Source: a virus
Taxonomy: Duplodnaviria; Heunggongvirae; Uroviricota; Caudoviricetes
Virus record (IMG/VR): IMGVR_UViG_2690316318_000016
Strand: one strand, 5' to 3'
Length of the DNA stretch: 13,080 nt
A program made the position numbers and the translations under genes. A model generated the notes under the pieces. It worked only from the letters and a program-made list of their open reading frames with translations, had not been told where the DNA came from and did no database searches. The stretch's first letter is position 1. Every line of letters begins with the position of its first letter. Shown one piece after another: positions 637 through 12,864 of the stretch.

Positions 637-1908
637 CTATTCTTTCCAGTCAATCCCATCCAGTAAGCACCCTGCCTCATATTTCCCCACCACCCAGTCA
701 AGGTTACAGGACTCATAGAACGCGAGGCGATTATACTGAGGCTCGTTTTTTACCAGGCCACGAACGGAACCACGCTGCCAGTACAGACACAGATTGGCAA
801 GAGGTGTGATCAATACAGCATTGTCCGGGAAAAATGGAACGGTTACAGCCGGGAGATTCCCCAGAACGGGATTTTTAATGATTTCCTCGTTAAGCAAAAT
901 TTCCTGATTCATCTGCGATGGATCAAGACGGTTTATCAAAGGCCATTGTTTACGGACCAGCGTATTGTGACTGCATACGGCCACAATGCCTTCCTGCCAC
1001 TGTTCATCAATCATGGATTGCCAGGCATCCAGAACGAGCGCATCTATCGTATGGTGTGTACCGCGTGTATTACTTTTCGGTGATGAAACAGAAAGGCCGC
1101 TGATAACCCTTCCCGCCGCTTCATTTCGAAACTTCTGCAACCAGCCCACGCCACAATCGTCACGCCCCGGATATGTTTTAGGGTCAGATTTGGCGGCATA
1201 ATGTGTGCCGTTAAAACCAATCTGAATTAAATCCAGCCATTTCCGGCGTTCAAAAGCGGCCCGCGCACTTCCTTCAAGGCCGTTTGCGGATGCGTGAGCA
1301 TCGGCATTGTCGTAGTTCAACGCAAAATCAAAATTAACCTGCTCGCAGCGGTAGCCCCTTGAAACCAGTGAATGCGCCTGTAGTGGCGAACGGCGCTCGT
1401 GAGGTGGCGATGTACGTGCCAACGGCCCCGAAGCGTCTACCAGCACAACCCGACCTGATATATCCGTAACAGGCACGGGAGTTATTTCAGCAAGGAAATT
1501 TGCCTGCCATCCACTGGCAAGCGTTGCACTCTGGCGAGGAACGGGTTCAACTTCTGACGAATAGCGCGCAGTGTCACCGGAAAAGTGCAAATCCTTCGGA
1601 TGTTTTCCGGTTATCGACTCGATAGCGCAATTGAAAACCATCTGAGCCTGTTGATTTCGTTGTGATACAACAGAATCAGCAGTGCAATTATAACGCTCAA
1701 TGCCGTCGTTATTACCCCCACCGCTTGCAGTATGCAGGGTGTGAAGCTCAAGCTCACGCTCCAGTTTTTGATATTCATTGTCCAGCGCGCGACGCGTCTC
1801 ATCGCTTATGCTTGCTGTGTTTGCTTTCAGGCGATTCCGGGACATTAATCCCCTGAGTCGGCTCACTATATCAGCGCCGTGCAAATGTGGAGTATTCAGA
1901 CCGCCCAT
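637..1908 (-). CDS. Hypothetical protein, 423 aa (start at Met48 of the 470-aa track ORF), unknown function
   Basis: Long open frame in GC-rich DNA. The ATG at 1906-1908 overlaps the TAA of the upstream 236-aa ORF (TAATG), suggesting translational coupling. No Walker A or other motif recognised. The track ORF's first 47 codons (1909-2049) overlap the upstream gene in another frame and are probably not translated. Confidence 0.6.
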   Translation of the reverse strand: MGGLNTPHLHGADIVSRLRGLMSRNRLKANTASISDETRRALDNEYQKLERELELHTLHTASGGGNNDGIERYNCTADSVVSQRNQQAQMVFNCAIESITGKHPKDLHFSGDTARYSSEVEPVPRQSATLASGWQANFLAEITPVPVTDISGRVVLVDASGPLARTSPPHERRSPLQAHSLVSRGYRCEQVNFDFALNYDNADAHASANGLEGSARAAFERRKWLDLIQIGFNGTHYAAKSDPKTYPGRDDCGVGWLQKFRNEAAGRVISGLSVSSPKSNTRGTHHTIDALVLDAWQSMIDEQWQEGIVAVCSHNTLVRKQWPLINRLDPSQMNQEILLNEEIIKNPVLGNLPAVTVPFFPDNAVLITPLANLCLYWQRGSVRGLVKNEPQYNRLAFYESCNLDWVVGKYEAGCLLDGIDWKE

Positions 1909-2618
1909 TACTGCCACCCCCGGCAGAGTTCTCTGCCCTCCGCAAGGTCGCGCATTTTTTCTGGATTCTGTCGCGCCGCGCTCCATTGTACAGGTGAAGG
2001 GGCGTTCCTGATTGCGCGGCTTACCGAATCCGGGAGTTTCTCCGGGCAATAACGCAGCGGGCTGGAGGTGTCGCTTTCGGTATCGTTAATCCGGCCGCGA
2101 ATCATCCCGACACTTTCAGCAGTATCTGTCGCTTTCAGTGTTTCGCATATTTTCTTTTCTGCGTTATACAGCGGCTGGCCAAGCAGCTCACATAAACCAC
2201 GAATCAATAACAGAGCAGGGGTCAGCTCGTTAATCAGTTCGGGAAGTGCTTTTGCAAATATCTCTGCCCGCAACTTATTATCAATGCTTTCGTAAGCACA
2301 ACCAGCCTCTGCCGCGTTATAACGACACTCCAGTAGCCTGATGCGCGCCTCATCATGCAGCACCCGCAGACGCTCAAGATTTTCTCGCGCCACACCCGCC
2401 TGAATGGATAATTTCGCGGAGGCTTCCGTTTTTACGCCCAGCGCAGACAGGATTGAGTTCTGCCAGTCACGATCGAGAGATTCCAGCTCCCCTTTCGTCT
2501 GTTCGATAGTTGCTTCCAGATTGGTGATTAATGATTCCTGTTCACTGAGTTTTGCCATGGCTGTATCAAACTGTGCTTTACATACCTGATGTTCGGCGCT
2601 TGCCTGAGTTATATCCAT
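1908..2618 (-). CDS. Hypothetical coiled-coil protein, 236 aa; possibly a Psu/Sid-like capsid-associated protein (weak, by context only)
   Basis: ORF MDITQASAEHQVCKAQFDTAMAKLSEQESLITNLEATIEQTKGELESL... is rich in E/L/A/K with a heptad-like pattern. It sits in a late-gene-like region near an Ogr/Delta-type activator. The Psu resemblance is from memory and unverified. The last ~45 residues are low-complexity, so a frameshift near 2050 cannot be excluded. Confidence 0.55.
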   Translation of the reverse strand: MDITQASAEHQVCKAQFDTAMAKLSEQESLITNLEATIEQTKGELESLDRDWQNSILSALGVKTEASAKLSIQAGVARENLERLRVLHDEARIRLLECRYNAAEAGCAYESIDNKLRAEIFAKALPELINELTPALLLIRGLCELLGQPLYNAEKKICETLKATDTAESVGMIRGRINDTESDTSSPLRYCPEKLPDSVSRAIRNAPSPVQWSAARQNPEKMRDLAEGRELCRGWQ

Positions 2619-3067: not shown

Positions 3068-3250
3068 CTATGAAGTTTTCGACTTCCTGCGCTTAGTAAT
3101 GCGTACAAACGACTCAAGCGTACAAAAACAAGCCCCACACTCAATATTATTGCACTGGTAATACGTTCTGTAGATGTTTTGTTCGTGTTCTTCCAACGAA
3201 CGACCACGGGTGCGGGCTGAAGCGCCACAGGCCGGGCAAGGGAAAGACAT
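3068..3250 (-). CDS. ogr: Ogr/Delta-family zinc-finger late transcription activator, 60 aa
   Basis: ORF MSFPCPACGASARTRGRSLEEHEQNIYRTYYQCNNIECGACFCTLESF has the C-x2-C...(22)...C-x4-C spacing and YxQC motif characteristic of P2 Ogr / P4 Delta. Confidence 0.8.
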   Translation of the reverse strand: MSFPCPACGASARTRGRSLEEHEQNIYRTYYQCNNIECGACFCTLESFVRITKRRKSKTS

Positions 3251-3540
3251 ATCACGCTCCTCTTACTGGTGTGAAATTTAACCTATTATATCTTCTGCCG
3301 CCCCCTCTGGCTGTATCAAATAAACCCGCAGCAGTCGCCGCGTATTACGCACGGGCGCGCCGTTCCCATGCTCACTCGTCACATTCCCCGTATCAGTTCT
3401 CTCTTGCCGTAAGAACGGCTCTGGCTGGCGATAAAACTAACCCGGTCGGGGCATTCCCGCAGCCTTTAGCGAAAATGTAATTTACCCCCTGAAACGCGTG
3501 CTGTTCCCCCGTCACCTGCGCGCGAAAAACTCACCGTTTT

Positions 3541-3639
3541 TTGTGCACGCACGAAATCGCCCTCCGGGCGCGCCAGTACTGGGCCGGATGGGCAAAAAGT
3601 TACTCTAAAAAATTGTGCAAATTTGTGCACTTTTGTGCA
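3541..3639. promoter_or_regulatory. Array of TTGTGCA motifs (3541, 3613, 3623, 3633); the last three phased at exactly 10 bp and forming overlapping GTGCA/TGCAC palindromes
   Basis: Read directly: aTTGTGCAaaTTTGTGCActTTTGTGCAg. Ten-bp phasing puts the sites on one helix face, as in operator or iteron arrays. The region is GC-rich and noncoding-looking, between the ogr-like gene and the iteron cluster. Confidence 0.4.
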
Positions 3640-3865
3640 GATGAACAACAGCGTCAAAAAGAGTGCTTTTGAGAGATTTTTTATGGCAACTGCGCCGCGT
3701 GTATTACGTTTTTTACCATCCCCGCCGCGCATGTACATACTTCATTTTTCTGCCAAACAACAGGGCAACTCCCCGTGACTGACAGCCCCAAAAAAATCAA
3801 TGATTGATGTTGCATTTTTGTTAGAGGTCAGGCCAGTTGTTTTGGGGCTCTGCCTCATAATCCGG

Positions 3866-4184
3866 TGGGGGGTGCGCAAAGCGGTTACAACGGTTACAAC
3901 CCCAAAAAACACCACATAACAATATGATTTTAATGAATATTATTTGTAACCGCTTTGCGGTTACACTGCGGTTACAACGGTTACAGGTTTCAGAAAGTTA
4001 TTTATTATCAATCAGTTAAAAACTTAACTTGTAACCGCCTGTAACCTAACAAAACGGTTACATGTAACCGCGTTGTAACCGCTTTTGTAACTCATCGGAC
4101 CAGTTGTAATATGTTGATATATAATATAAAAATAAGTGATTTTAAATTTGTAACCGTTGTAACCGCTTTGCGCAACCCCCCCCG
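3866..4184. repeat. Iteron cluster: at least 13 copies of GGTTACA/TGTAACC (many extended to GCGGTTACA) in both orientations, AT-rich spacers, bounded by a perfect 26-bp inverted repeat (3874-3899 and 4148-4173); putative replication origin
   Basis: Repeats and the inverted repeat were checked base by base. A perfect 9-3-9 palindrome TGTAACCGC-ttt-GCGGTTACA lies at 3945-3965. The architecture (short iterons in both orientations plus an AT-rich stretch) parallels the P4 ori/crr bound by alpha protein, and it sits just downstream of the primase/helicase-integrase operon. Confidence 0.5.
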
Positions 4185-4381
4185 GACTTTAGCGCGACTC
4201 TTTAAAATGTTAATTAAACACACTTACTCTGTTTCACTCTCATTAACTCTCTGTAATTGAAATGTGCCTCGCCACTGCTTGACTCTTTCTGGTAATCAGG
4301 GGAGGGAGAGCAAAAAAATTGATGGCGACACCGCTGCAATATGGCCGCCATTGCATTGCTGTTACTGTTGGTTCTGGCCAA

Positions 4382-4416
4382 CAAAAAAGGCCAGTGGAAA
4401 ACTGACCTCTTTTGCT
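4382..4416 (-). terminator. Weak candidate terminator downstream of the P2-type integrase (imperfect hairpin flanked by an A-run and a T-run)
   Basis: acAAAAAAggccagtggaaaactgacctcTTTTgc; the stem has a mismatch, so this is low confidence. Confidence 0.3.
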
Positions 4417-4437
4417 GTGAATGTGGCGTTCTGCGGG

Positions 4438-5439
4438 TTACTCTGCAGGCTCTTTTTGTCCGGTAAATACCATGTCGGCTACCGGGTTAAATCTCATGGC
4501 ATCTGCCAGATAGTCGGGAGAAAAATGCGCATAAGTCATCGTTTGCTGAATAGTGGCATGTCCCAGAATCCGTTGCAGGGTAACGATGTTTCCCCCGTTC
4601 ATCATGAAATGCGTGGCGAACGTATGACGCATCACATGAGTCGCCTGCCCTTTTGGCAAATCAGGCTTCACCTCCTGGAGGATCTCGCGAAACCGGAGAT
4701 AATCGACCTCGTACAGCGGCCCGGTTCGGCGGGTTTTAATCAGCGAGAGCACGGCATCAGACACCGGAACCGAACGGGACTTCCCGTTCTTGGTGTTGAA
4801 GAACGTCACGCGATTACCGACGATATGCTCTCCGCATAATTCCGCCGCCTCACCCCACCGCGCCCCCGTAGAAAGACACAGAATGGCGACACGACGCGCA
4901 TCACCTTCGAGTCGTTCAAGAAGCCGCTCAATCTCATCATCAGAAAGAAAGGCCATCTCTGTATTCTGAATTTTTAGCTTACGTATATTGCGCACGGGGT
5001 TCGGGTTGTGAAAGCTCCCTGCTTCAATCAACACCGTGAACATGGTAGACAGAACGCATAAATCACGATTAATACTGGACGGCATTAATCCGGCCTGTAA
5101 TTTCTCTGACCGATATTCAAGCATAAATTTTCGCGTCATCTGACTGGCGCGAGGATCTCTCATTTCACGAATCACTTTCTCCAGCCGGATCCTGTAGGTA
5201 TCGCCGTAAGCCTGATTGCGCCCGTCAAGCATCCACCATGTATCAAGCAACTCTGATAATCGCCGCCGATCAGCAGGTTTAGCCAGCCATGGGTTATTAT
5301 GGAAATTCTGCAAAACATATTGTTCGAACTTCTCTGCACTTCCTTTCCGGGCAAAAATTTTACGTATCCGTTTGCCGTATGCCCCTTGCGGCCTGATATC
5401 TAGCAACCATCTTCCATCATCCATCTTTCTGATCGACAT
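4438..5439 (-). CDS. int: Tyrosine recombinase, P2-type integrase family, about 333 aa
   Basis: C-terminal catalytic region LPKGQATHVMRHTFATHFMMNGGNIVTLQRILGHATIQQTMTYAHF (HxxR, GH and catalytic Y) and box I STGARWGEAAEL closely resemble P2 Int as recalled. Start chosen at the ATG at 5437-5439 (MSIRK...) because an AAGGAGA ribosome-binding site precedes it and it lies 2 nt after the primase stop; the track start at 5475 overlaps the primase. Confidence 0.9.
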   Translation of the reverse strand: MSIRKMDDGRWLLDIRPQGAYGKRIRKIFARKGSAEKFEQYVLQNFHNNPWLAKPADRRRLSELLDTWWMLDGRNQAYGDTYRIRLEKVIREMRDPRASQMTRKFMLEYRSEKLQAGLMPSSINRDLCVLSTMFTVLIEAGSFHNPNPVRNIRKLKIQNTEMAFLSDDEIERLLERLEGDARRVAILCLSTGARWGEAAELCGEHIVGNRVTFFNTKNGKSRSVPVSDAVLSLIKTRRTGPLYEVDYLRFREILQEVKPDLPKGQATHVMRHTFATHFMMNGGNIVTLQRILGHATIQQTMTYAHFSPDYLADAMRFNPVADMVFTGQKEPAE

Positions 5440-5441
5440 AC

Positions 5442-8111
5442 TTAAGGTCTCTCCTTGTAACTGAATATCCGGCATTTCAGCACTTCCGGCTCTCTGGCTT
5501 CGGCTACCCCTTTTCCGGCGTTTGCCTGTCTGGACACCTCACTACGAATTGTTTTACGACCTGTCAACGGTCGGGAGCGTCCAGCCCCGAGCAACTCAAT
5601 CATTTCGCGATCGGTTCGGATCTCCACGCGGTGAATGGCGGCTGCCTGTGCCAGTTGCGGAATACTGATAGCAATCCCTTCGCGGCATCCCTTGCCGTAG
5701 TGGTTTACACCGTATTTTGTTATGCCGTCCAGGAAGTCGAACGCCTCCCAGAATTCCACCACTTCCGGTAAATCAGCCGCCGCCGCTTTAACCTGCGCTG
5801 TTGCCATTTGTTCCAGTTCCAGACATGTGGCATCAAGCCATTCATCCGGGATATCGATAACGCATTTCAGCGCCCTGACCAGCGCGATAATTTGCGCGTG
5901 ATTTTTGGCGATACGGGGATGGCGAATATTTTCGCAGCCGCAAAGGCGTTCCGTTTCAGCTGGCGACACTTCCAGGAACGTTTGCATAATCGCCCGTTCC
6001 TGACTTACCGCCCGATGAATAAACCCCGATACCTTCTCGACGGGGTAGAGTTCCAGCCGTCTTGCCGCCAGTCGGGTATCAGGTGAATGGCGTTTTTTGT
6101 CGGTGTAGATGCGTATCAGGCGCTCAATAATTGCCGGAGAGGCGTTTACCCGCGCATTCTGCGCAATCACGATAGCGCCCTTAAAATCCGGGTCATAGGT
6201 GTTGTTATTGTTGGCTTTAACACCACGAACGCCGATACCACCGCCGTTATAGAGACTTTTCAGGTTATCGAAGTCAAACGCACCTCTTTTTTGCGCATTG
6301 TCTCCCCGGTCCGCTTCAATCAGAACAACAGGTAATCCGGCGACCTGTCCAAAGGTGCGCTTCCAGCCCGCCTCTGATCCTTTGGTTGGATCAACGCCTT
6401 CATAGTTGTCACGACCGCACAACCGCCAGCAAAAATCAATCAATGTTGATTTACCCGTTCCGGGTTCCCCGGTGACTTCAAGGAAGGGGAAGGATTCTTC
6501 TTTATCCCGGATTTGTTCGCTGAACAGGGAGCCCAACCAGAAAGCCAGGGTAATAATTCCCTTTTCACCAAAAGCCAGCCAGAGATCTTCCACCCAGGAC
6601 TCTGTAAACTCATCCGTTTTTTTGTAGTTAATCTGTAATGTGGGTTTTTCGCTTAATGGTTTTGCGTTTATGCCATCAATTTCAAAATAATCCTCATCAT
6701 TGATTTCATAAGTTTTACCCTTGTAAACGGCAATATCATTAAACAGCCATGCCCCAATTCCCTTGTTGTATCCGATAAAATCCTGACCAATAACCTCTTT
6801 TATTGCGGGAAGGTCATTTTTTATTAATGCGTCAAGCTGCGTAGTCGTTCCGGTATAAATACCACCTTTTGCCACGTGCAGCAGGCGTTTTTTAAATTCA
6901 GATGAGGATGTTAATTGTCCTGATGTAAAGGTGTTTTTCACCGTAGCACCATCCGGGAATGTAACGCGGAAGTAATACCATGCTTCATCCGTGTCATTGT
7001 TTCGAATGTAATAAAGCGGCACTGGGTTACAGTTTGCGATTTCTTTTACAGCGCCGGATTCCTTAAGTGCAATTTTTCGCGCTTCATCTTCGTCAACACT
7101 TCGCTCATTAATGACACGTTCAACAGCCTTCATATAGCGCTCAATATCCAGCTTGAACCAGAAAACACGGTTATCAAAGGTAAAATAAAACTCCTTCCGC
7201 TCACGAAAGGAAAATATTATCAGCGCCTTATCTCTCGGCGATTTCGCCAGCAATAAATCACCGTAATAACGGTATCTTTTCACATCATGGCCACGCAGCT
7301 TTCCGGCGATGTGTAAATCATTCCAGTCGCGTTTATTGTTGTTTTTACCTGGCAACGCCGCTGCCGTTCTCCAGCCGTCTTCGGCGCTGCGTTCTGCATG
7401 TTTTTTCGCGTAACGTTCACCCGCACGCCCGTTATCCAGGGCCCACACAATAACCGGACGGGGATTATCCCCGCACAGCTTCGCCAGCTCTTCCAGCGCC
7501 TTATCAGGGTAGTTCACGGCAGACATGACAGAAACGGCCGCAATGCCATTCTGGTTAAGGCTGATGGCATCAAAGATGCCCTCACAAATCCAGATTTCTT
7601 TGGCCTTGCTTAAATCTGCTCCCGGATAAGCCCACCACAACCCCTTGTAGCTGCCGGAAAAATTCGCCTTGCGCGCGAAGCGTCCCGGTCGGTCTATGAT
7701 GCGCTCCCACCACACGCCGTCAGCCAGCGTAAAACGCACAGTAGCGGCCTGTTCGCCGCTTTCCTTGTCCTGGTATCGCTCCTGAGTAAATGCGCCCTTC
7801 AGTGGCCCCACAGCAATATTGCGCGCTTCCTGAAGATAAGCTGCCGCCGCTGCATATGGCTCATCTTTCGTGCTGATATAACGATCTGACCATGATGAAA
7901 ACACATCCGGGTAAAGTTCTTTGGTCAGCAGGTCTGTACCGCATTTATTTTCGCGCCCACAGTGTACGATGTACGGCTTCTCAAGACTGGTAAACAGTTC
8001 TTTCTTTCCACATTGCGGACAAACACCATAGCGAAGATAGTTATTTTCTTCTTTAAAGTTGTAATCACGGATAAGACGGTTAATAATCTCTTTTCTGGTG
8101 TTATTTTTCAT
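5442..8111 (-). CDS. P4 alpha-like DNA primase/helicase (zinc ribbon + TOPRIM-type primase + P-loop NTPase), about 889 aa
   Basis: N-terminal zinc-binding motif CPQCGKK...HCGRENKCG; TOPRIM-like WICEGIFDAISL; Walker A TGEPGTGKST and Walker B VVLIEAD. Start placed at the ATG at 8109-8111 (MKNNTRK...); the track's GTG start at 8132 would translate the poly-C tract. Confidence 0.9.
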   Translation of the reverse strand: MKNNTRKEIINRLIRDYNFKEENNYLRYGVCPQCGKKELFTSLEKPYIVHCGRENKCGTDLLTKELYPDVFSSWSDRYISTKDEPYAAAAAYLQEARNIAVGPLKGAFTQERYQDKESGEQAATVRFTLADGVWWERIIDRPGRFARKANFSGSYKGLWWAYPGADLSKAKEIWICEGIFDAISLNQNGIAAVSVMSAVNYPDKALEELAKLCGDNPRPVIVWALDNGRAGERYAKKHAERSAEDGWRTAAALPGKNNNKRDWNDLHIAGKLRGHDVKRYRYYGDLLLAKSPRDKALIIFSFRERKEFYFTFDNRVFWFKLDIERYMKAVERVINERSVDEDEARKIALKESGAVKEIANCNPVPLYYIRNNDTDEAWYYFRVTFPDGATVKNTFTSGQLTSSSEFKKRLLHVAKGGIYTGTTTQLDALIKNDLPAIKEVIGQDFIGYNKGIGAWLFNDIAVYKGKTYEINDEDYFEIDGINAKPLSEKPTLQINYKKTDEFTESWVEDLWLAFGEKGIITLAFWLGSLFSEQIRDKEESFPFLEVTGEPGTGKSTLIDFCWRLCGRDNYEGVDPTKGSEAGWKRTFGQVAGLPVVLIEADRGDNAQKRGAFDFDNLKSLYNGGGIGVRGVKANNNNTYDPDFKGAIVIAQNARVNASPAIIERLIRIYTDKKRHSPDTRLAARRLELYPVEKVSGFIHRAVSQERAIMQTFLEVSPAETERLCGCENIRHPRIAKNHAQIIALVRALKCVIDIPDEWLDATCLELEQMATAQVKAAAADLPEVVEFWEAFDFLDGITKYGVNHYGKGCREGIAISIPQLAQAAAIHRVEIRTDREMIELLGAGRSRPLTGRKTIRSEVSRQANAGKGVAEAREPEVLKCRIFSYKERP

Positions 8112-8119
8112 ATATAAAT

Positions 8120-8159
8120 CCCCCCCCCCCACTGCACCTTTTGCAGTGGGGTTTTTATT
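8120..8159. promoter_or_regulatory. 11-nt homopolymeric C tract (8120-8130) plus a 10-bp GC-rich stem-loop (CCCCACTGCA-ccttt-TGCAGTGGGG, 8127-8151) followed by TTTTTATT, just upstream of the primase start
   Basis: Read directly. On the plus strand it looks like an intrinsic terminator. On the minus-strand mRNA the hairpin and G-run sit 8 nt upstream of the primase AUG, where a G-run could act as the Shine-Dalgarno. Confidence 0.45.
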
Positions 8160-9285: not shown

Positions 9286-9643
9286 TTTGGCGGCTCCTCT
9301 AACTGATTTACGGAGTCTCGCCAGCACGCTGCTAAACATGGTGGCGGGACGTAACAGGGTTAGCAGACTGGCGTTAGAGAAACCAGCGAGCGCAAAGGCT
9401 CCCCCATTACGCCCCGCCATAATACGGGGTAGGGTGGAATTACGGGCACAAAAAAACCGCATTACGGAAATATAGCGGCTACCCGCTCTAACAATCAGGC
9501 TGCTAAACCCGGCACCTGTTTTATGAGGTGCGGGCAAACGATACGCCATGACAAAAAAGCGAGTCAAGAAAAATTGCAAATTATTTTGGCGATATTGCGC
9601 TGAGTTATTGATTTTTAAGAGTAAAAAAGTCATAATCATTTCT

Positions 9644-9731
9644 GCCTATTGTTTCTTATTGTTGGTTTCAGGTGCATTAAATGCACATCCTTGACTGGTT
9701 GGCTCGCTGGCTTTAGCGAGCTTCTTTTTTT
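9644..9731 (+). ncRNA. Candidate small RNA of about 90 nt: sigma70-like promoter (TTGATT 9608-9613, 17-nt spacer, CATAAT 9631-9636), internal palindrome GTGCATT-a-AATGCAC (9672-9686), intrinsic terminator (GCTCGCT-ggcttt-AGCGAGC + T8, 9702-9731)
   Basis: All elements read directly. The terminator is unambiguous for the plus strand (hairpin followed by TTCTTTTTTTT). The promoter assignment is by eye. No plus-strand protein gene ends here. Confidence 0.3.
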
Positions 9732-9833
9732 TGCTCTGCTGTCAGCGCCCGACCTCTCCCCCTCACGTGTAGCAACGTGTTCACATCAGTAAGTTTTGCC
9801 GCCAAGCGATGGGCTGCAATAAGCCGCCCGGGC

Positions 9834-10154
9834 TTATTCAACTCTGGCGCTACCGGATTCCCTCTCCCTTTTCTTTTTGGCGTTTTCGTATGGGTTATTC
9901 ACTTTGGCAATAACTGGCGGATTACGTAGCCACCACAAAACATCACTTAACAGCCAGGTACATGAGCAACGCCCCAAAGAGTGACGGGGAGGAAAAGCAC
10001 CGATCTTCTCCAGTTCCCAGCGCCGGGAGCGTGAAAGCGTGGTCATTTTTTTACACTTCTCTTCCCTGATGCGTTCTTCGCAGTCAAAACCATACTCGGC
10101 GAGTATGGTGCGGCGCTGTTCTGGAGTTGGTGGAATGAATGCGGATTGAGTCAT
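9834..10154 (-). CDS. alpA: AlpA-family phage transcriptional regulator (HTH), 106 aa
   Basis: Core TTLSRSRRWELEKIGAFPP...LGRCSCTWLLSDVLWWL matches the AlpA/prophage CP4-57 regulator pattern. GGGGGA ribosome-binding site upstream of the ATG at 10154. The N-terminal ~35 residues are an extension relative to 70-aa AlpA. Confidence 0.8.
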   Translation of the reverse strand: MTQSAFIPPTPEQRRTILAEYGFDCEERIREEKCKKMTTLSRSRRWELEKIGAFPPRHSLGRCSCTWLLSDVLWWLRNPPVIAKVNNPYENAKKKRERESGSARVE

Positions 10155-10249
10155 ATTTCCCCCTATGTTTCTGAACTTTCGGGGGAGATTTTTGTTTTAC
10201 GGGGTTTTGAAAGCAAGTATTAAAGGTCTTATTAAGATGCTTGCTGGTC

Positions 10250-11302
10250 TTACTGAGATGATGCCTTAATCCATCTTGATATAGTACTTTTATCAAAGCG
10301 CATATTGAGTCCTGCCTCTTTTGCTTCCGCGGTCAATATATCAGCAAGTTTTACCGGATTGTTTTCGAGTTCTTTATAATGAATAACAAGCATCGCACGA
10401 AAAAAATCCTTCATTGTTTTAGATAATCGTTCTATATTGTTTTTATTGGTGCATATATCTTTCTCTCCATCCTCAGAGCTTAATATATTGTTACCCGCAC
10501 ACAAATATAAAGTGTCTGCCAATGGATTAACATAATCTTTTCTTAACTCGCTATTGAAGCTTGTAGCATTTTGTATTTTTAAAAAATCACTCTTTAAGAT
10601 ATATAAATCACCAATATCAAAAGAAACATCCTCAGTAACAATTACTCCTATATGTATATCAACGTCAGAAGCAATTATAATATTGCTATTAATTATTCGG
10701 TTGGCTTTAAACTTCTTATTAAAATCATAGTTGGCAAAAAAACTTCTCCCCAAAGCGAAAATGCCGCCTATTTCAACAAAATACTTATGGTATTTTTCTT
10801 GAATACCTTTAAATACTGGTGGTACAACTGCCACAGCTCTTTCATCCGTTGCTATTCGATATACACTATATATGTGATAATTTTCCCCATAATATAACCC
10901 CCTGTTATAATAATTTAACAAAGCAAATGCAGTATCAATTGCTATGTCACCAAATTTGGGCGCTACATATGAATGACTTAGAGATTCGCACATTGAATCA
11001 AATATAATTCTCGACTTGGTTTTTATATAATTAAAACCATGGTGTTCTGCCGCCCTTTCTGAAATGGCATCAAGGTCAGATAACCGTGATTTACATGGTT
11101 CTGAATCCAGAAACTTACGCAGACAATCGAAATTAACCACATCTTTTTCATCTGGGATATTTAATACTCCATATGCAGATTCAATTTTTATACAAATACG
11201 AATGCAGCCTGTCACAGCCCAATGAATAAGATCATCAATATCGCAATCTAATAACTTTGCCGCGCGCTCAATAGGATAGTAATCTCTTAGTGGTAACGTC
11301 AT
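10250..11302 (-). CDS. Hypothetical protein, 350 aa, strongly AT-rich orphan gene in the integrase-alpA cargo slot; possible HTH-like segments at both termini
   Basis: Single uninterrupted ORF in DNA visibly far more AT-rich than the rest of the element; it starts 17 bp after the integrase stop. N-terminal PIERAAKLLDCDIDDLIHWAVTGCI and C-terminal FDKSTISRWIK resemble HTH segments; the central ~250 aa has no recognisable motif. Confidence 0.7.
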   Translation of the reverse strand: MTLPLRDYYPIERAAKLLDCDIDDLIHWAVTGCIRICIKIESAYGVLNIPDEKDVVNFDCLRKFLDSEPCKSRLSDLDAISERAAEHHGFNYIKTKSRIIFDSMCESLSHSYVAPKFGDIAIDTAFALLNYYNRGLYYGENYHIYSVYRIATDERAVAVVPPVFKGIQEKYHKYFVEIGGIFALGRSFFANYDFNKKFKANRIINSNIIIASDVDIHIGVIVTEDVSFDIGDLYILKSDFLKIQNATSFNSELRKDYVNPLADTLYLCAGNNILSSEDGEKDICTNKNNIERLSKTMKDFFRAMLVIHYKELENNPVKLADILTAEAKEAGLNMRFDKSTISRWIKASSQ

Positions 11303-11318
11303 TCTTTTCGCTCACATA

Positions 11319-12518
11319 TTATTTATCTTTAACCATTTTTTCTAAACATTCAAGCCAGTCATTTAGAGCCTTTAATTTGAATGGGATATACTGGCTAAGA
11401 TTATAGTTAAATTCTGCGGAGCCAGCATTATATACGTGACCTAATAATGACTCGACAATATGAGGCATTACCCCCATGTTGTTTAACCCAGTTGAAAATG
11501 TCCGTCTTAAATCGTGTAGCGTCCATTTTTCATTATGTCCGAATATTTTATACATTCTGCGACCTTTCAGAGAAACAGCTCTATGCGTTCTCTCCTCACC
11601 CAAAAGTAAGCCCGTCCTCCCGGTTTCCTGTTTTAGCTCTTTTAACCAGTCTCTTATACCTTCGGGAATTGGCCGAATAATCTTTTTGTTACTTTTACTG
11701 TTATTTCTTGGAACAATCCAAACCCATTCATTAAAATCCCATTCAATCCAATGAGAACGGCGAATCTCTACAGTTCTAGCCCCAAAGACAATAAGCAACT
11801 TTATTAATCTAGAAAAATAAATATCCCGATGTTTCTCCTTTGCAAAATACCAAAGATCTGATAGTTCGGCATCACTCAAAACACGGTCGCGCTGTCCGGC
11901 AGATTCCCCTACATCGGTTAACGTTAAATGAACAAGGGCATCACTGATGGCATAACGCCGAACATTGCAAAACCGCAATGCCTGTTTGGAGAGTTGAAAC
12001 ATACGCCCCGCCGTTTTTGAACTTATAGCGCGAATCTCATCAAAACATTTTACCCAATGGCGAGTATCGCACCGTGATAACGGATAATGGCCTATTCTGG
12101 GGTAGACATGTTTGCAGAATTGCGCCCTAATCAATTCCTCATCTTTGCGCTTATGTCTTGCATAATTGACCAACCAATATTCCAACGCATCTCGAACAGT
12201 AACAGGAGCACGGGATTCTTCAGTAAAAAGTTGGAGTTCAATTTTTGGATCAAGACCATTAGCCAACCATTGACGGCAACGCTCACGCCACATCCTGGCA
12301 TCTTTCAGACTAATATCAGGGTAATTCCCTAGAGTAAGACGAATAACTGAACTCTCACGCCCTCCAAGGCGATATGAAAAAACCCAGCTCACATGCCCTT
12401 TAGTTGATAACCTGACCCCTAACCCCTCTCCGTCAGCAAGCATTTCAACACGATCCCTATGCGTTCCTTGCAGCGCCTTTAGTTTCCTGTCGCTGAGCTT
12501 ATTCGTTCCAGACATCAT
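11319..12518 (-). CDS. int: P4-type tyrosine integrase (DUF4102-like N-terminal arm-binding domain + phage integrase catalytic domain), about 399 aa
   Basis: N-terminus KLSDRKLKALQG...GEGLGVRLSTKGHVSWVFSYRLGGRE...LTLGNYPDISLKDAR matches the P4 integrase-family N-terminal domain. C-terminus HDLRRTFSTGL...LLGHV carries the HxxR and GH motifs. Start placed at the ATG at 12516-12518 (the track start is GTG at 12521). Confidence 0.9.
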   Translation of the reverse strand: MMSGTNKLSDRKLKALQGTHRDRVEMLADGEGLGVRLSTKGHVSWVFSYRLGGRESSVIRLTLGNYPDISLKDARMWRERCRQWLANGLDPKIELQLFTEESRAPVTVRDALEYWLVNYARHKRKDEELIRAQFCKHVYPRIGHYPLSRCDTRHWVKCFDEIRAISSKTAGRMFQLSKQALRFCNVRRYAISDALVHLTLTDVGESAGQRDRVLSDAELSDLWYFAKEKHRDIYFSRLIKLLIVFGARTVEIRRSHWIEWDFNEWVWIVPRNNSKSNKKIIRPIPEGIRDWLKELKQETGRTGLLLGEERTHRAVSLKGRRMYKIFGHNEKWTLHDLRRTFSTGLNNMGVMPHIVESLLGHVYNAGSAEFNYNLSQYIPFKLKALNDWLECLEKMVKDK

Positions 12519-12530
12519 CACCGTTCCGAT

Positions 12531-12553
12531 ATTGATACACGCATTGATACACG
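12531..12553. repeat. Tandem direct repeat ATTGATACACG x2 (12-bp period) immediately upstream of the P4-type integrase start
   Basis: Read directly: ATTGATACACGcATTGATACACGt, 13-35 nt upstream of the integrase ATG; candidate operator or arm-type site. Confidence 0.35.
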
Positions 12554-12864
12554 TGAAATATTAATATCCAGAAAAAATGAAATCGAGCATGAACACAAAA
12601 TCACTACAACATAATGATTTTGATTGATTTTTTATATTCAGCGGGTAAACACTAGAAAAGTCAGGAACATAAAAAACATTACTTCTACAGTATGTTTCAT
12701 ATCTCTAACCATATGATTTAAAAACAAATCACTTCGCACGGGCGGGTTTCGGCACCGCAACAAAGCGCAAGACATGCAGTATACCAGCAAAACTATTCAT
12801 AAGCGGAATCCGTTAATAAAGTTCAATTTGTGAAAAGAAACGCATTGGTTCGCCGCAGGACAGC

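Follow-up and report, generated by a model that had tools for sequence, protein, structure and literature searches.

What is a second integrase, of the type known from phage P2, doing directly behind the replication gene of a phage satellite? The question is raised by the virus record IMGVR_UViG_2690316318_000016 (Caudoviricetes), a stretch of 13,080 nucleotides (nt) that we analysed at its full length and that we call the window. Judging by its genes and RNAs, the window represents a P4-like satellite that uses P2-family phages as helpers, with an integrase, AlpA, a Delta/Ogr protein, a C4-type immunity RNA and a cos region in common with a P2-family helper. On its minus strand, a primase/helicase gene is followed by the gene of a P2-type tyrosine integrase, which we name int2, and then by a cluster of repeats. 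The features that matter here are the following.

5442..8111, minus strand: primase/helicase, 889 amino acids (aa) from the ATG at 8111, with an alternative GTG at 8132
4438..5439, minus strand: int2, a 333-aa P2-type tyrosine integrase, allele A
4669..5389, minus strand: block of int2 that is swapped in allele-B satellites, about codons 17-257
4379..4417, minus strand: predicted rho-independent terminator closing the primase-int2 unit, hairpin z -4.3
3861..4186, strandless: predicted origin (repeat cluster), with 39-nt inverted arms, 13 GGTTACA iterons and an AT-rich core
3474..3640, strandless: probable cos-region block in common with the helper clade, with matches in 19 of 50,697 phage records

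A helper-derived integrase without an attachment site of its own (attP), lying between the satellite primase and its predicted origin, is a conserved variant of P4-like satellites, of which we found no description in the satellite literature searched. We are nearly certain of the anatomy of this arrangement. As to its function, we tentatively favour, at somewhat less than an even chance, a capture of int2 from the helper, whose att sites the enzyme would target in trans.

The primase and int2 genes form one tightly spaced unit

The preliminary description of this DNA had placed both genes in a single operon with a 2-nt gap, and had located the ribosome-binding site of the integrase gene inside the coding end of the primase. 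Both points are confirmed. At the junction (...TTACAAGGAGAGACCTTAAGTATGTCG, minus strand), the primase stop codon TAA (5444-5442) is followed by the spacer GT (5441-5440) and by the ATG of int2 (5439-5437), with an AAGGAG at 5456-5451, within the primase coding end and 11 nt ahead of this ATG. The start at 5439 is favoured over an in-frame ATG at 5475 by alignment with phage integrases. A consensus scan of the minus strand detected no sigma-70-like promoter and no terminator between the two genes, and a 17-bp hairpin followed by a U-run begins 20 nt past the int2 stop codon (4379-4417, -24 kcal/mol, z -4.3). The same terminator hairpin, with compensating changes, is present in the island of an Escherichia sp. 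(L002; numbers of this kind denote loci). Because of the tight spacing, the common orientation and the terminator after int2, co-transcription of the primase and int2 as one transcription unit is the natural reading, and their translation is probably coupled, in agreement with what had been proposed.

The 2-nt spacing recurs in all the E. coli and Escherichia loci that we read (the window, L001, L002, L083-L086, L089 and L090), while relatives in Kluyvera, Erwinia and Izhakiella (L003-L006) have a spacing of 15 nt with a GAGGGA Shine-Dalgarno sequence. Among 5,426 complete E. coli genomes, 62 carry the whole 4.5-kb block from the origin to the primase, in each case chromosomally, which shows that the gene pair is not a chance neighbourhood. 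In strains E92 and E94, an IS903B is inserted inside the matched block. The earlier remark that the arrangement is not a standard one also stands, as int2 lies after a primase and away from C/cox or att, an order for which the satellite literature searched gave no description.

The primase carries an N-terminal Zn-finger, a Toprim domain and a P-loop helicase. Pfam gives Toprim_2/Toprim_3 and a weak match to DUF5906, and did not find the alpha-type primase PF03288. The protein matches phrog_1139 ('DNA primase') at 2.6e-298 and its homologues are widespread in Proteobacteria; a sequence search of the PDB with the primase returned no matches. In three Mycoavidus loci (L058, L070 and L073), a distant homologue of the primase precedes an unrelated tyrosine recombinase gene of the same orientation, with 25-28% identity to int2. 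The aligned part of this recombinase begins about 670 nt past the primase, and the start of its gene is estimated at about 300 nt past it. The Mycoavidus pair may represent an independent primase-recombinase linkage, or merely the element's own integrase.

The repeat cluster goes with the primase

About 250 nt downstream of int2 there is a repeat cluster in which the GC content falls to 0.30-0.38. Two inverted arms of 39 nt (3861-3899 and 4148-4186), 95% complementary and with two GGTTACA motifs each, flank 248 nt of AT-rich DNA holding more copies of the motif in both orientations. In all, GGTTACA occurs 13 times in the stretch 3883-4164, when the window as a whole would be expected to contain 1.2. 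We gathered 80 loci encoding relatives of the primase, one genome per species, and scanned them for repeated k-mers. Directly after the primase gene, the most repeated 7-mer was very often of the form xxTTACA (at least 15 loci): GGTTACA in Providencia and Proteus (L010, L024 and L062), CGTTACA in Pectobacterium, Samsonia, Providencia and Xenorhabdus (L007-L009, L012 and L013), CCTTACA in Arsenophonus (L020), and CATTACA or ATTACAT in L014 and L011. In these example loci (L007-L014, L020, L024 and L062) no integrase lies between the primase and the repeats. Besides, L010 presents the same inverted-arm design, with TCGGAAAGCGGTTACAATGGTTACAA and its complement 237 nt apart, and L007 has equivalent inverted arms 221 nt apart. 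The array of the window aligns with those of L010 and L024, directly after the primase, over about 310 nt at 68% identity (E ~1e-17).

Clustered short repeats and an AT-rich stretch beside an initiator gene, kept together across relatives, are the anatomy of an iteron origin, and on this anatomy the cluster at 3861-4186 is the predicted iteron origin of the primase/helicase. P4 alpha binds iterons in ori and crr, and the array of the window is comparable to these. Because the same design follows the primase in relatives without int2, the array belongs to the primase and not to int2; it travels with the primase family and predates int2. The repeats are also the same across three alleles of int2 (A, B and C, see below), and GGTTACA is found in the satellites with the fourth, allele D.

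Two other interpretations of the cluster were considered and rejected. By analogy with the P2 order ogr-attP-int, the repeats could have been the attP of int2, and this is contradicted by their persistence beside the primase in elements without int2 or with another allele of it, as well as by the different appearance of real P2-type arms. A Fim-type invertible switch was discarded too, given that there is no orientation polymorphism in 60 genomes and that L010 and L007 have the same repeats without a recombinase. We detected no inversion of the repeat segment in the 60 genomes listed among the 62, nor in the aligned loci. All 60 listed genomes are explained: 21 of them by alignments in one piece and the rest by alignments in two pieces, owing to the swap of int2.

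int2 is a conserved gene exchanged as a cassette

The assignment of Int2 to the P2-type integrases holds. Pfam identifies Int_N (PF24624, 8.6e-29) and Phage_integrase (PF00589, 1e-18), the catalytic domain carries the residues R, K, HxxR, H and Y, and the protein is 85% identical to the Int of phage 569R5. At least four alleles exist, 51-59% identical to one another. Allele A is that of the window, L001, L089 and L090; allele B that of L002, L083-L085 and 29 E. coli genomes (at least 97% identity) whose satellite backbones differ; allele C was found in L086; and allele D in L003-L006, from Kluyvera, Erwinia dacicola and Izhakiella. Their alignment shows the catalytic R, K, HxxR, H and Y retained in each of the four.

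The comparison of alleles A and B delimits what is exchanged. Between L002 and the window, the int2 proteins are only 54% identical, compared with 96-100% for all the remaining genes of the island. At the DNA level, allele-A and allele-B islands (L002, L083, L084 and L085) are 96-97% identical except at 4669-5389, with homology breaking exactly at 4668/4669 and at 5389/5390. The repeats, the terminator and the 2-nt junction are unaltered by this swap. The first 17 codons or so and the C-terminal tail of int2 are satellite-specific, the E. coli tail reading ..NPVA..KEPAE.

Between two satellite copies, those of the window and L090, int2 shows a synonymous divergence (dS) of 0.64 and a nonsynonymous divergence (dN) of 0.046 (dN/dS 0.07), with all three domains constrained. 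The N-terminal arm-binding domain has an omega of 0.13; the core-binding domain, with 0.03-0.17 against the phage relatives, is the domain best conserved with them. Intact open reading frames (ORFs) with conserved coupling are found in about 60 genomes and four genera. These values point to strong purifying selection, and the intact residues lead us to propose that Int2 is an active recombinase. The int2 of L005, from the insect endosymbiont Erwinia dacicola, is frameshifted. Looking for convergent N-terminal changes in alleles A/B versus D, such as an adaptation to the iterons would produce, we saw none.

The place between the primase and the origin can be occupied by other genes. L011 and L014 have the same backbone of primase, Ogr, sid-like and capsid-like genes, with other, unannotated ORFs in this slot, and L007 and L010 have no gene in it. 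The slot ORFs lie at 9793-10500 (minus strand) in L011 and at 9668-10090 (plus strand) in L014, and gave no match in Pfam or PADLOC. By this comparison, int2 is cargo in a variable slot that behaves as a small cargo hotspot.

int2 has no attachment site and does not place the satellite

In the related phages, int adjoins C and cox, and a pair of arm-type direct repeats extends into the last codons of the gene, a second arm pair lying about 250 nt away. The repeats are ATGGACA twice in 569R5, GTGTCCAC..TTGTCCAC in Chuche and TGTCTACA twice in phiT5282H, all of which fit the P2-type arm consensus tgTGGaCa (PMC3448106). The homology of the satellites to phage int begins about 10-17 codons in and stops ahead of the tail; because the tail has been replaced by a satellite-specific one, the phage arm pair is gone from the satellites.

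Nothing else in the satellites takes its place. Neither ATGGACA nor TGTCCAC occurs in the window, nor does any paired arm pattern, and searches of allele A, B and D satellites for copies of the helper att core or arms gave only chance-level matches of at most 15 nt with a mismatch. Scanning the window for tandem 8-mer pairs, we recovered the cos repeats, one further pair adjacent to the main integrase (the P4-type enzyme encoded at 11319..12521), and nothing else. The 186-type arm motif GCCGCCAC is not enriched in the window (15 matches vs 10 expected). In satellites of the argW type (L001 at 21252-21277, and also L084, L085 and L086), we observed GTGTCCACatatTGTCCAC, a perfect P2-type arm-like direct-repeat pair, in a terminator hairpin about 50 nt past the main integrase; it is absent from the window and from the other satellites of the gcd-hpt type. 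This pair could be due to chance (about 1.7 matches are expected over all loci) or could be a binding site of Int2.

The islands have two places of insertion, tRNA-Arg (argW) and the gcd-hpt interval, and either one can hold a satellite with allele A or with allele B. The site follows the main integrase and does not depend on which int2 allele is present. Inspection of 10 loci showed the island inserted beside the main integrase every time; it is collinear in 60 of the 60 listed genomes, and in none of these is it permuted at int2. Int2 is thus not what inserts the satellite into the chromosome: unlike a P2-type integration module, it has no attP alongside and does not set the insertion site.

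The closest relatives of int2 are in the probable helper clade

Regarding its phage relatives, allele A is 85% identical, at the protein level, to the Int of the Peduoviridae phage vB_EcoM-569R5 and P88-like phages, allele B is 82% identical to those of Chuche, P884B11, PhiR44_2 and Shae_phiSM, and allele D is 87-89% identical to those of phiT5282H and SEN4/5. A second link with phages comes from a 165-nt block (about 3474-3640) that L004, L011 and L014 also conserve and that contains three TTGTGCA repeats with a 10-nt period (3609-3640). The 19 phage records that it matches are P88-like or related P2-family phages. Twelve listed records include 569R5, 705R2, P88, PhiR44_2, Shae_phiSM, Chuche, 500465-2 and 520873; the other seven, given by organism name, include two Xuanwuvirus and two Enterobacter entries, and P884B11 and phiT5282H are presumed, not confirmed, to be among them. 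In 569R5 about 900 nt separate the block from the portal gene (gpQ), and in 500465-2 it is found at the start of the record. This position, near the portal gene or the genome end, is that of cos in P2-type genomes. The block is probably the cos region, and as such would identify P88-like P2-family phages as the helper clade. The phages with the packaging site of the satellite are largely the same as the closest relatives of int2, and an origin of int2 in the helper clade is very likely, to judge from these matches.

One strain holds both partners. In strain 08_3323, the allele-B satellite L083 coexists with a P2-like prophage, L092, which is complete and sits at pdxB, and the DNA that they have in common consists of exactly two segments: the cos block (80.6% over 165 nt) and int (74.8% over 927 nt, 82% at the protein level). 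The satellite of strain A36, considered as a further case of a satellite beside a P2-like prophage, was ruled out: it sits at gcd-hpt. Across genomes, extra A-type int copies were found in 9 of 21 allele-A genomes; the corresponding figures are 3 of 39 where the satellite has another allele and 6.4% where there is no satellite. A B-type (Chuche-like) prophage int was found in 7 of 29 allele-B genomes, compared with 5.6% overall. The presence of a second int was deduced from the number of places per genome, and only 08_3323 was inspected directly, so this enrichment of co-occurrence is suggestive only.

What Int2 could do

We propose the following scenario. The primase gene would originally have been followed directly by its own origin, the GGTTACA array flanked by inverted repeats. 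In one clade (Escherichia, Kluyvera, Erwinia and Izhakiella), int2 would have come to fill the slot between both, captured without attP from the satellite's own helper clade, the P88-like P2-family phages, and the phage arm sites overlapping the 3' end of int would have been exchanged for the satellite-specific tail. With its gene presumably co-transcribed and probably translationally coupled with the primase, Int2 would be made when the satellite replicates, and during this replicative phase it would work in trans on the att sites of the helper. In a first variant, it would supply Int which, with the Cox of the helper, excises a derepressed P2-type prophage; excision of P2-family prophages is limited by the supply of Int. 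In a second variant, it would interfere with, or redirect, the integration or excision of the helper.

An action in trans on the helper is proposed because the satellite contains no matching site, and taken by itself it is a tentative idea whose chance we put at, or a little below, that of the whole reading. Since all the catalytic residues are retained, an active enzyme is favoured over a pure decoy. Interference is kept among the candidates because the arm-binding N-terminus has diverged from every phage relative. The general form of the idea is rather doubtful: that the satellite keeps a mimic of the helper integrase, matched in the core-binding domain and devoid of attP, that controls the chromosomal state of the helper. 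We are equally reserved about its corollaries, namely that the mimic drives or blocks excision or integration of the helper and that int2 alleles track the integration specificities of helpers.

Several observations weigh against an action of Int2 on its helper. The proposal of action in trans starts from a missing cis site, which is negative evidence. The arm-binding N-terminus of all the alleles has diverged from the nearest phage Int (dN 0.17-0.26 vs 0.03-0.10 in the core-binding domain), with some changes at positions proposed to discriminate arm types (PMC3448106), and Int2 may be unable to use the arm sites of the helper. Measured against the nearest phage Int, synonymous changes are close to saturation or past it; the captures are old, and the true cognate helper is perhaps unsampled. 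Allele C has no close phage relative in the collection (best 57%). The co-occurrence counts suffer from two confounders, clonal strains and genomes with two satellites, and an enterotoxigenic E. coli (ETEC) lineage with an allele-A-like int2 also has B-type prophages, so that the matching of alleles is not clean. Finally, P4-type satellites exploit P2 prophages that are not excised, and the benefit of excising the helper is not obvious.

Among the alternatives, Int2 could be a second integration module that inserts the satellite at the attB of the helper, or at another site, through an unrecognised attP. The gene is intact, selected and catalytically complete, and the omega of 0.13 suggests that its arm-binding domain still binds some arm DNA. 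This is nonetheless unlikely: the satellite has no phage-type arms or core, the P' arm that overlaps the 3' end of phage int is replaced, the insertion is always beside the other integrase (10 loci, 60 genomes) and never permuted at int2, and the insertion site does not depend on the allele.

The preliminary description had suggested that the recombinase resolves multimers. In that case, Int2 would act on dimers of a circular satellite at an internal site, so that monomers are available to be segregated or packaged. P4 is able to persist as a plasmid, and the circles that P2-type terminases package are monomeric, so a conversion to monomers could be of importance. The predicted expression of int2 with a replication gene would fit such a role, as would two contigs that suggest a circular or tandem form (L005 and the permuted L003, see below). 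The suggestion does not fare well: no cis site co-varies with the allele, even though islands that are otherwise 96-97% identical have core-binding domains only about 25-35% identical, and in P2-type integrases it is the core-binding domain that determines site specificity (PMC3448106). Moreover, the heterobivalent, P2-type architecture with an arm-binding domain is unlike that of Xer-, Cre- or ResD-type resolvases, there are no arm-like or core-like repeats near int2, and relatives with the same primase and origin manage without it. We regard multimer resolution as improbable.

We give a similarly low chance to an anti-helper decoy, an Int2 that occupies the core sites of the helper or mixes into its Int tetramers, trapping the helper in the chromosome and leaving the capsids to the satellite. 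Satellites commonly interfere with the reproduction of their helpers, and a core-binding domain matching the helper Int between a satellite-specific arm-binding N-terminus and C-terminal tail is what such a decoy could look like. However, synonymous divergence from the phage genes is saturated, and all the catalytic residues are nonetheless retained in four alleles, which argues that catalysis is needed.

Even less probable is a functionless hitchhiker, a tolerated remnant of recombination between satellite and helper. The variability of the slot, the absence of int2 from some related satellites and the frameshifted copy of Erwinia dacicola are compatible with it, but the dN/dS of 0.07 between satellite copies, the intact ORFs with conserved coupling in about 60 genomes and four genera, and an allele B that is at least 97% identical across 29 genomes with differing backbones speak against it.

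Finally, the preliminary description also raised an action of the recombinase on the adjacent repeats. This idea, which we considered as an inversion of the 326-bp segment in a Fim-like manner or as a binding of the iterons to control replication, is close to refuted: int2 is close to the 39-nt inverted repeats and the iteron TTGTAACC loosely resembles P2-type arm motifs (TGTCCAC, TGTCTAC), but Providencia, Proteus and Pectobacterium elements (L010, L024 and L007) have the identical design without int2, the array is unchanged beside a 54%-identical allele and constant across alleles whose N-terminal domains differ, and the segment has the same orientation in 60 of 60 genomes and in the aligned loci.

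Satellites hijack the capsids, packaging, transcription and replication of their helpers. Control of helper integration or excision by means of a copy of the helper's own integrase is not described in the literature that we searched. If Int2 does act in trans on its helper, this would constitute a new class of satellite-helper manipulation, aimed at the site-specific recombination of the helper; it would explain how satellites deal with P2-family prophages, and would add a rapidly swapped specificity cassette to the arms race between both. Regardless of the function of int2, these data assign a predicted origin to a widespread, uncharacterised family of primase/helicases (phrog_1139) and identify, from the cos block, the probable helper clade of a satellite family.

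Other features of the satellite

The remaining features of the window are given below, from the main integrase towards the opposite end of the island.

11319..12521, minus strand: P4-type integrase (main integrase), Arm-DNA-bind_3 and Phage_integrase domains; the chromosomal site tracks this gene
Between the main integrase and AlpA in minus-strand order: 350-aa ORF
9834-10154, minus strand: AlpA
9450-9531, minus strand: isrK, 52.2 bits, upstream of the replication operon
9337-9424, minus strand: C4 antisense RNA, 72.9 bits, upstream of the replication operon
Between isrK and the primase in minus-strand order: small ORFs, including an Icd-like gene annotated in RefSeq copies
3068..3250, minus strand: Ogr/Delta-type late-gene activator, which marks dependence on a P2-family helper
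Ahead of the capsid homologue and overlapping it (the pair spans 637-2618), minus strand: 236-aa coiled-coil ORF
637-2049, minus strand: P2-family major-capsid homologue; the longest ORF has 470 aa and RefSeq annotates 423 aa
1-593, plus strand: mazE/mazF-type toxin-antitoxin pair at the island end, adjoining the capsid homologue

The C4 RNA and isrK (9337-9531) indicate an immunity of the P4 type, predicted to be based on RNA. Profiles for Psu, Sid and epsilon gave no matches among the ORFs of the window that were scanned. Just upstream of the start of the main integrase there is a tandem 12-nt repeat (12530-12555, TATTGATACACG twice), which likely represents the arm sites of this enzyme. A perfect, GC-rich hairpin of 10 bp at 8127-8151, between a 101-aa ORF and the start of the primase, may be an attenuator or a terminator within the early operon. 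The capsid homologue is 35% identical to the capsid protein of the prophage co-resident with the satellite of strain 08_3323, and in L085, L086 and L089 a capsid homologue is placed elsewhere, between the AlpA-like and Icd-like genes. P4 has no capsid gene of its own. In other satellites, hok/gef occupies the position of mazEF. The genomes STEC306/307/308 and ETEC4067 contain two satellites of this family each. As for the two contigs mentioned above, that of Erwinia dacicola (L005) has 11,984 nt and both starts and ends within one sid-like gene, and L003, a metagenomic contig of 12.7 kb, is circularly permuted. These layouts suggest a circular episomal or tandem form.

Comparison with known systems

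The nearest relatives of Int2 are the integrases of P2-family phages (Peduoviridae), such as P2 Int and those of 569R5, Chuche and phiT5282H. They have the same arm-type N-terminal, Int_N and catalytic domains, all the catalytic residues are present in both, and identity to specific phage Ints reaches 82-89%. In contrast to them, int2 has no C/cox switch adjoining and no attP, is not the enzyme that inserts its element, lies in a predicted replication operon, and has diverged in the N-terminal 17-30 residues or so and in the C-terminal tail.

The satellite itself resembles P4 in its P4-type integrase, AlpA, C4-family RNA and isrK, Icd-like gene and Delta/Ogr, in a multifunctional primase/helicase followed by an iteron region, and in a cos block common with its helper. 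Unlike P4, its primase is of a different family (Toprim_2, phrog_1139), not of the alpha/D5-type profile; its hijack module is downstream of the origin and includes a homologue of a P2-family capsid protein; and it has a second, helper-type integrase. SatelliteFinder and the P4 surveys discard extra integrases, and a satellite with a second integrase was not described in the satellite literature searched.

Linkage of a tyrosine recombinase gene to the replication of a small circular replicon is also known from Cre/loxP of P1, XerCD/cer and ResD/rfsF. These systems have a simple site near the gene and no arm-binding domain, whereas Int2 is heterobivalent and has no co-varying site. A different kind of likeness is offered by PLE satellites, whose integrase works with a directionality factor, PexA, that comes from the helper phage ICP1 (PMC9638900). 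In both cases recombination would be split between satellite and helper, and the proposed pairing of Int2 with the Cox of the helper would be the mirror image of the PLE case. The difference lies in the target: the PLE integrase acts on the satellite's own att, a task for which the satellite in the window has a separate integrase.

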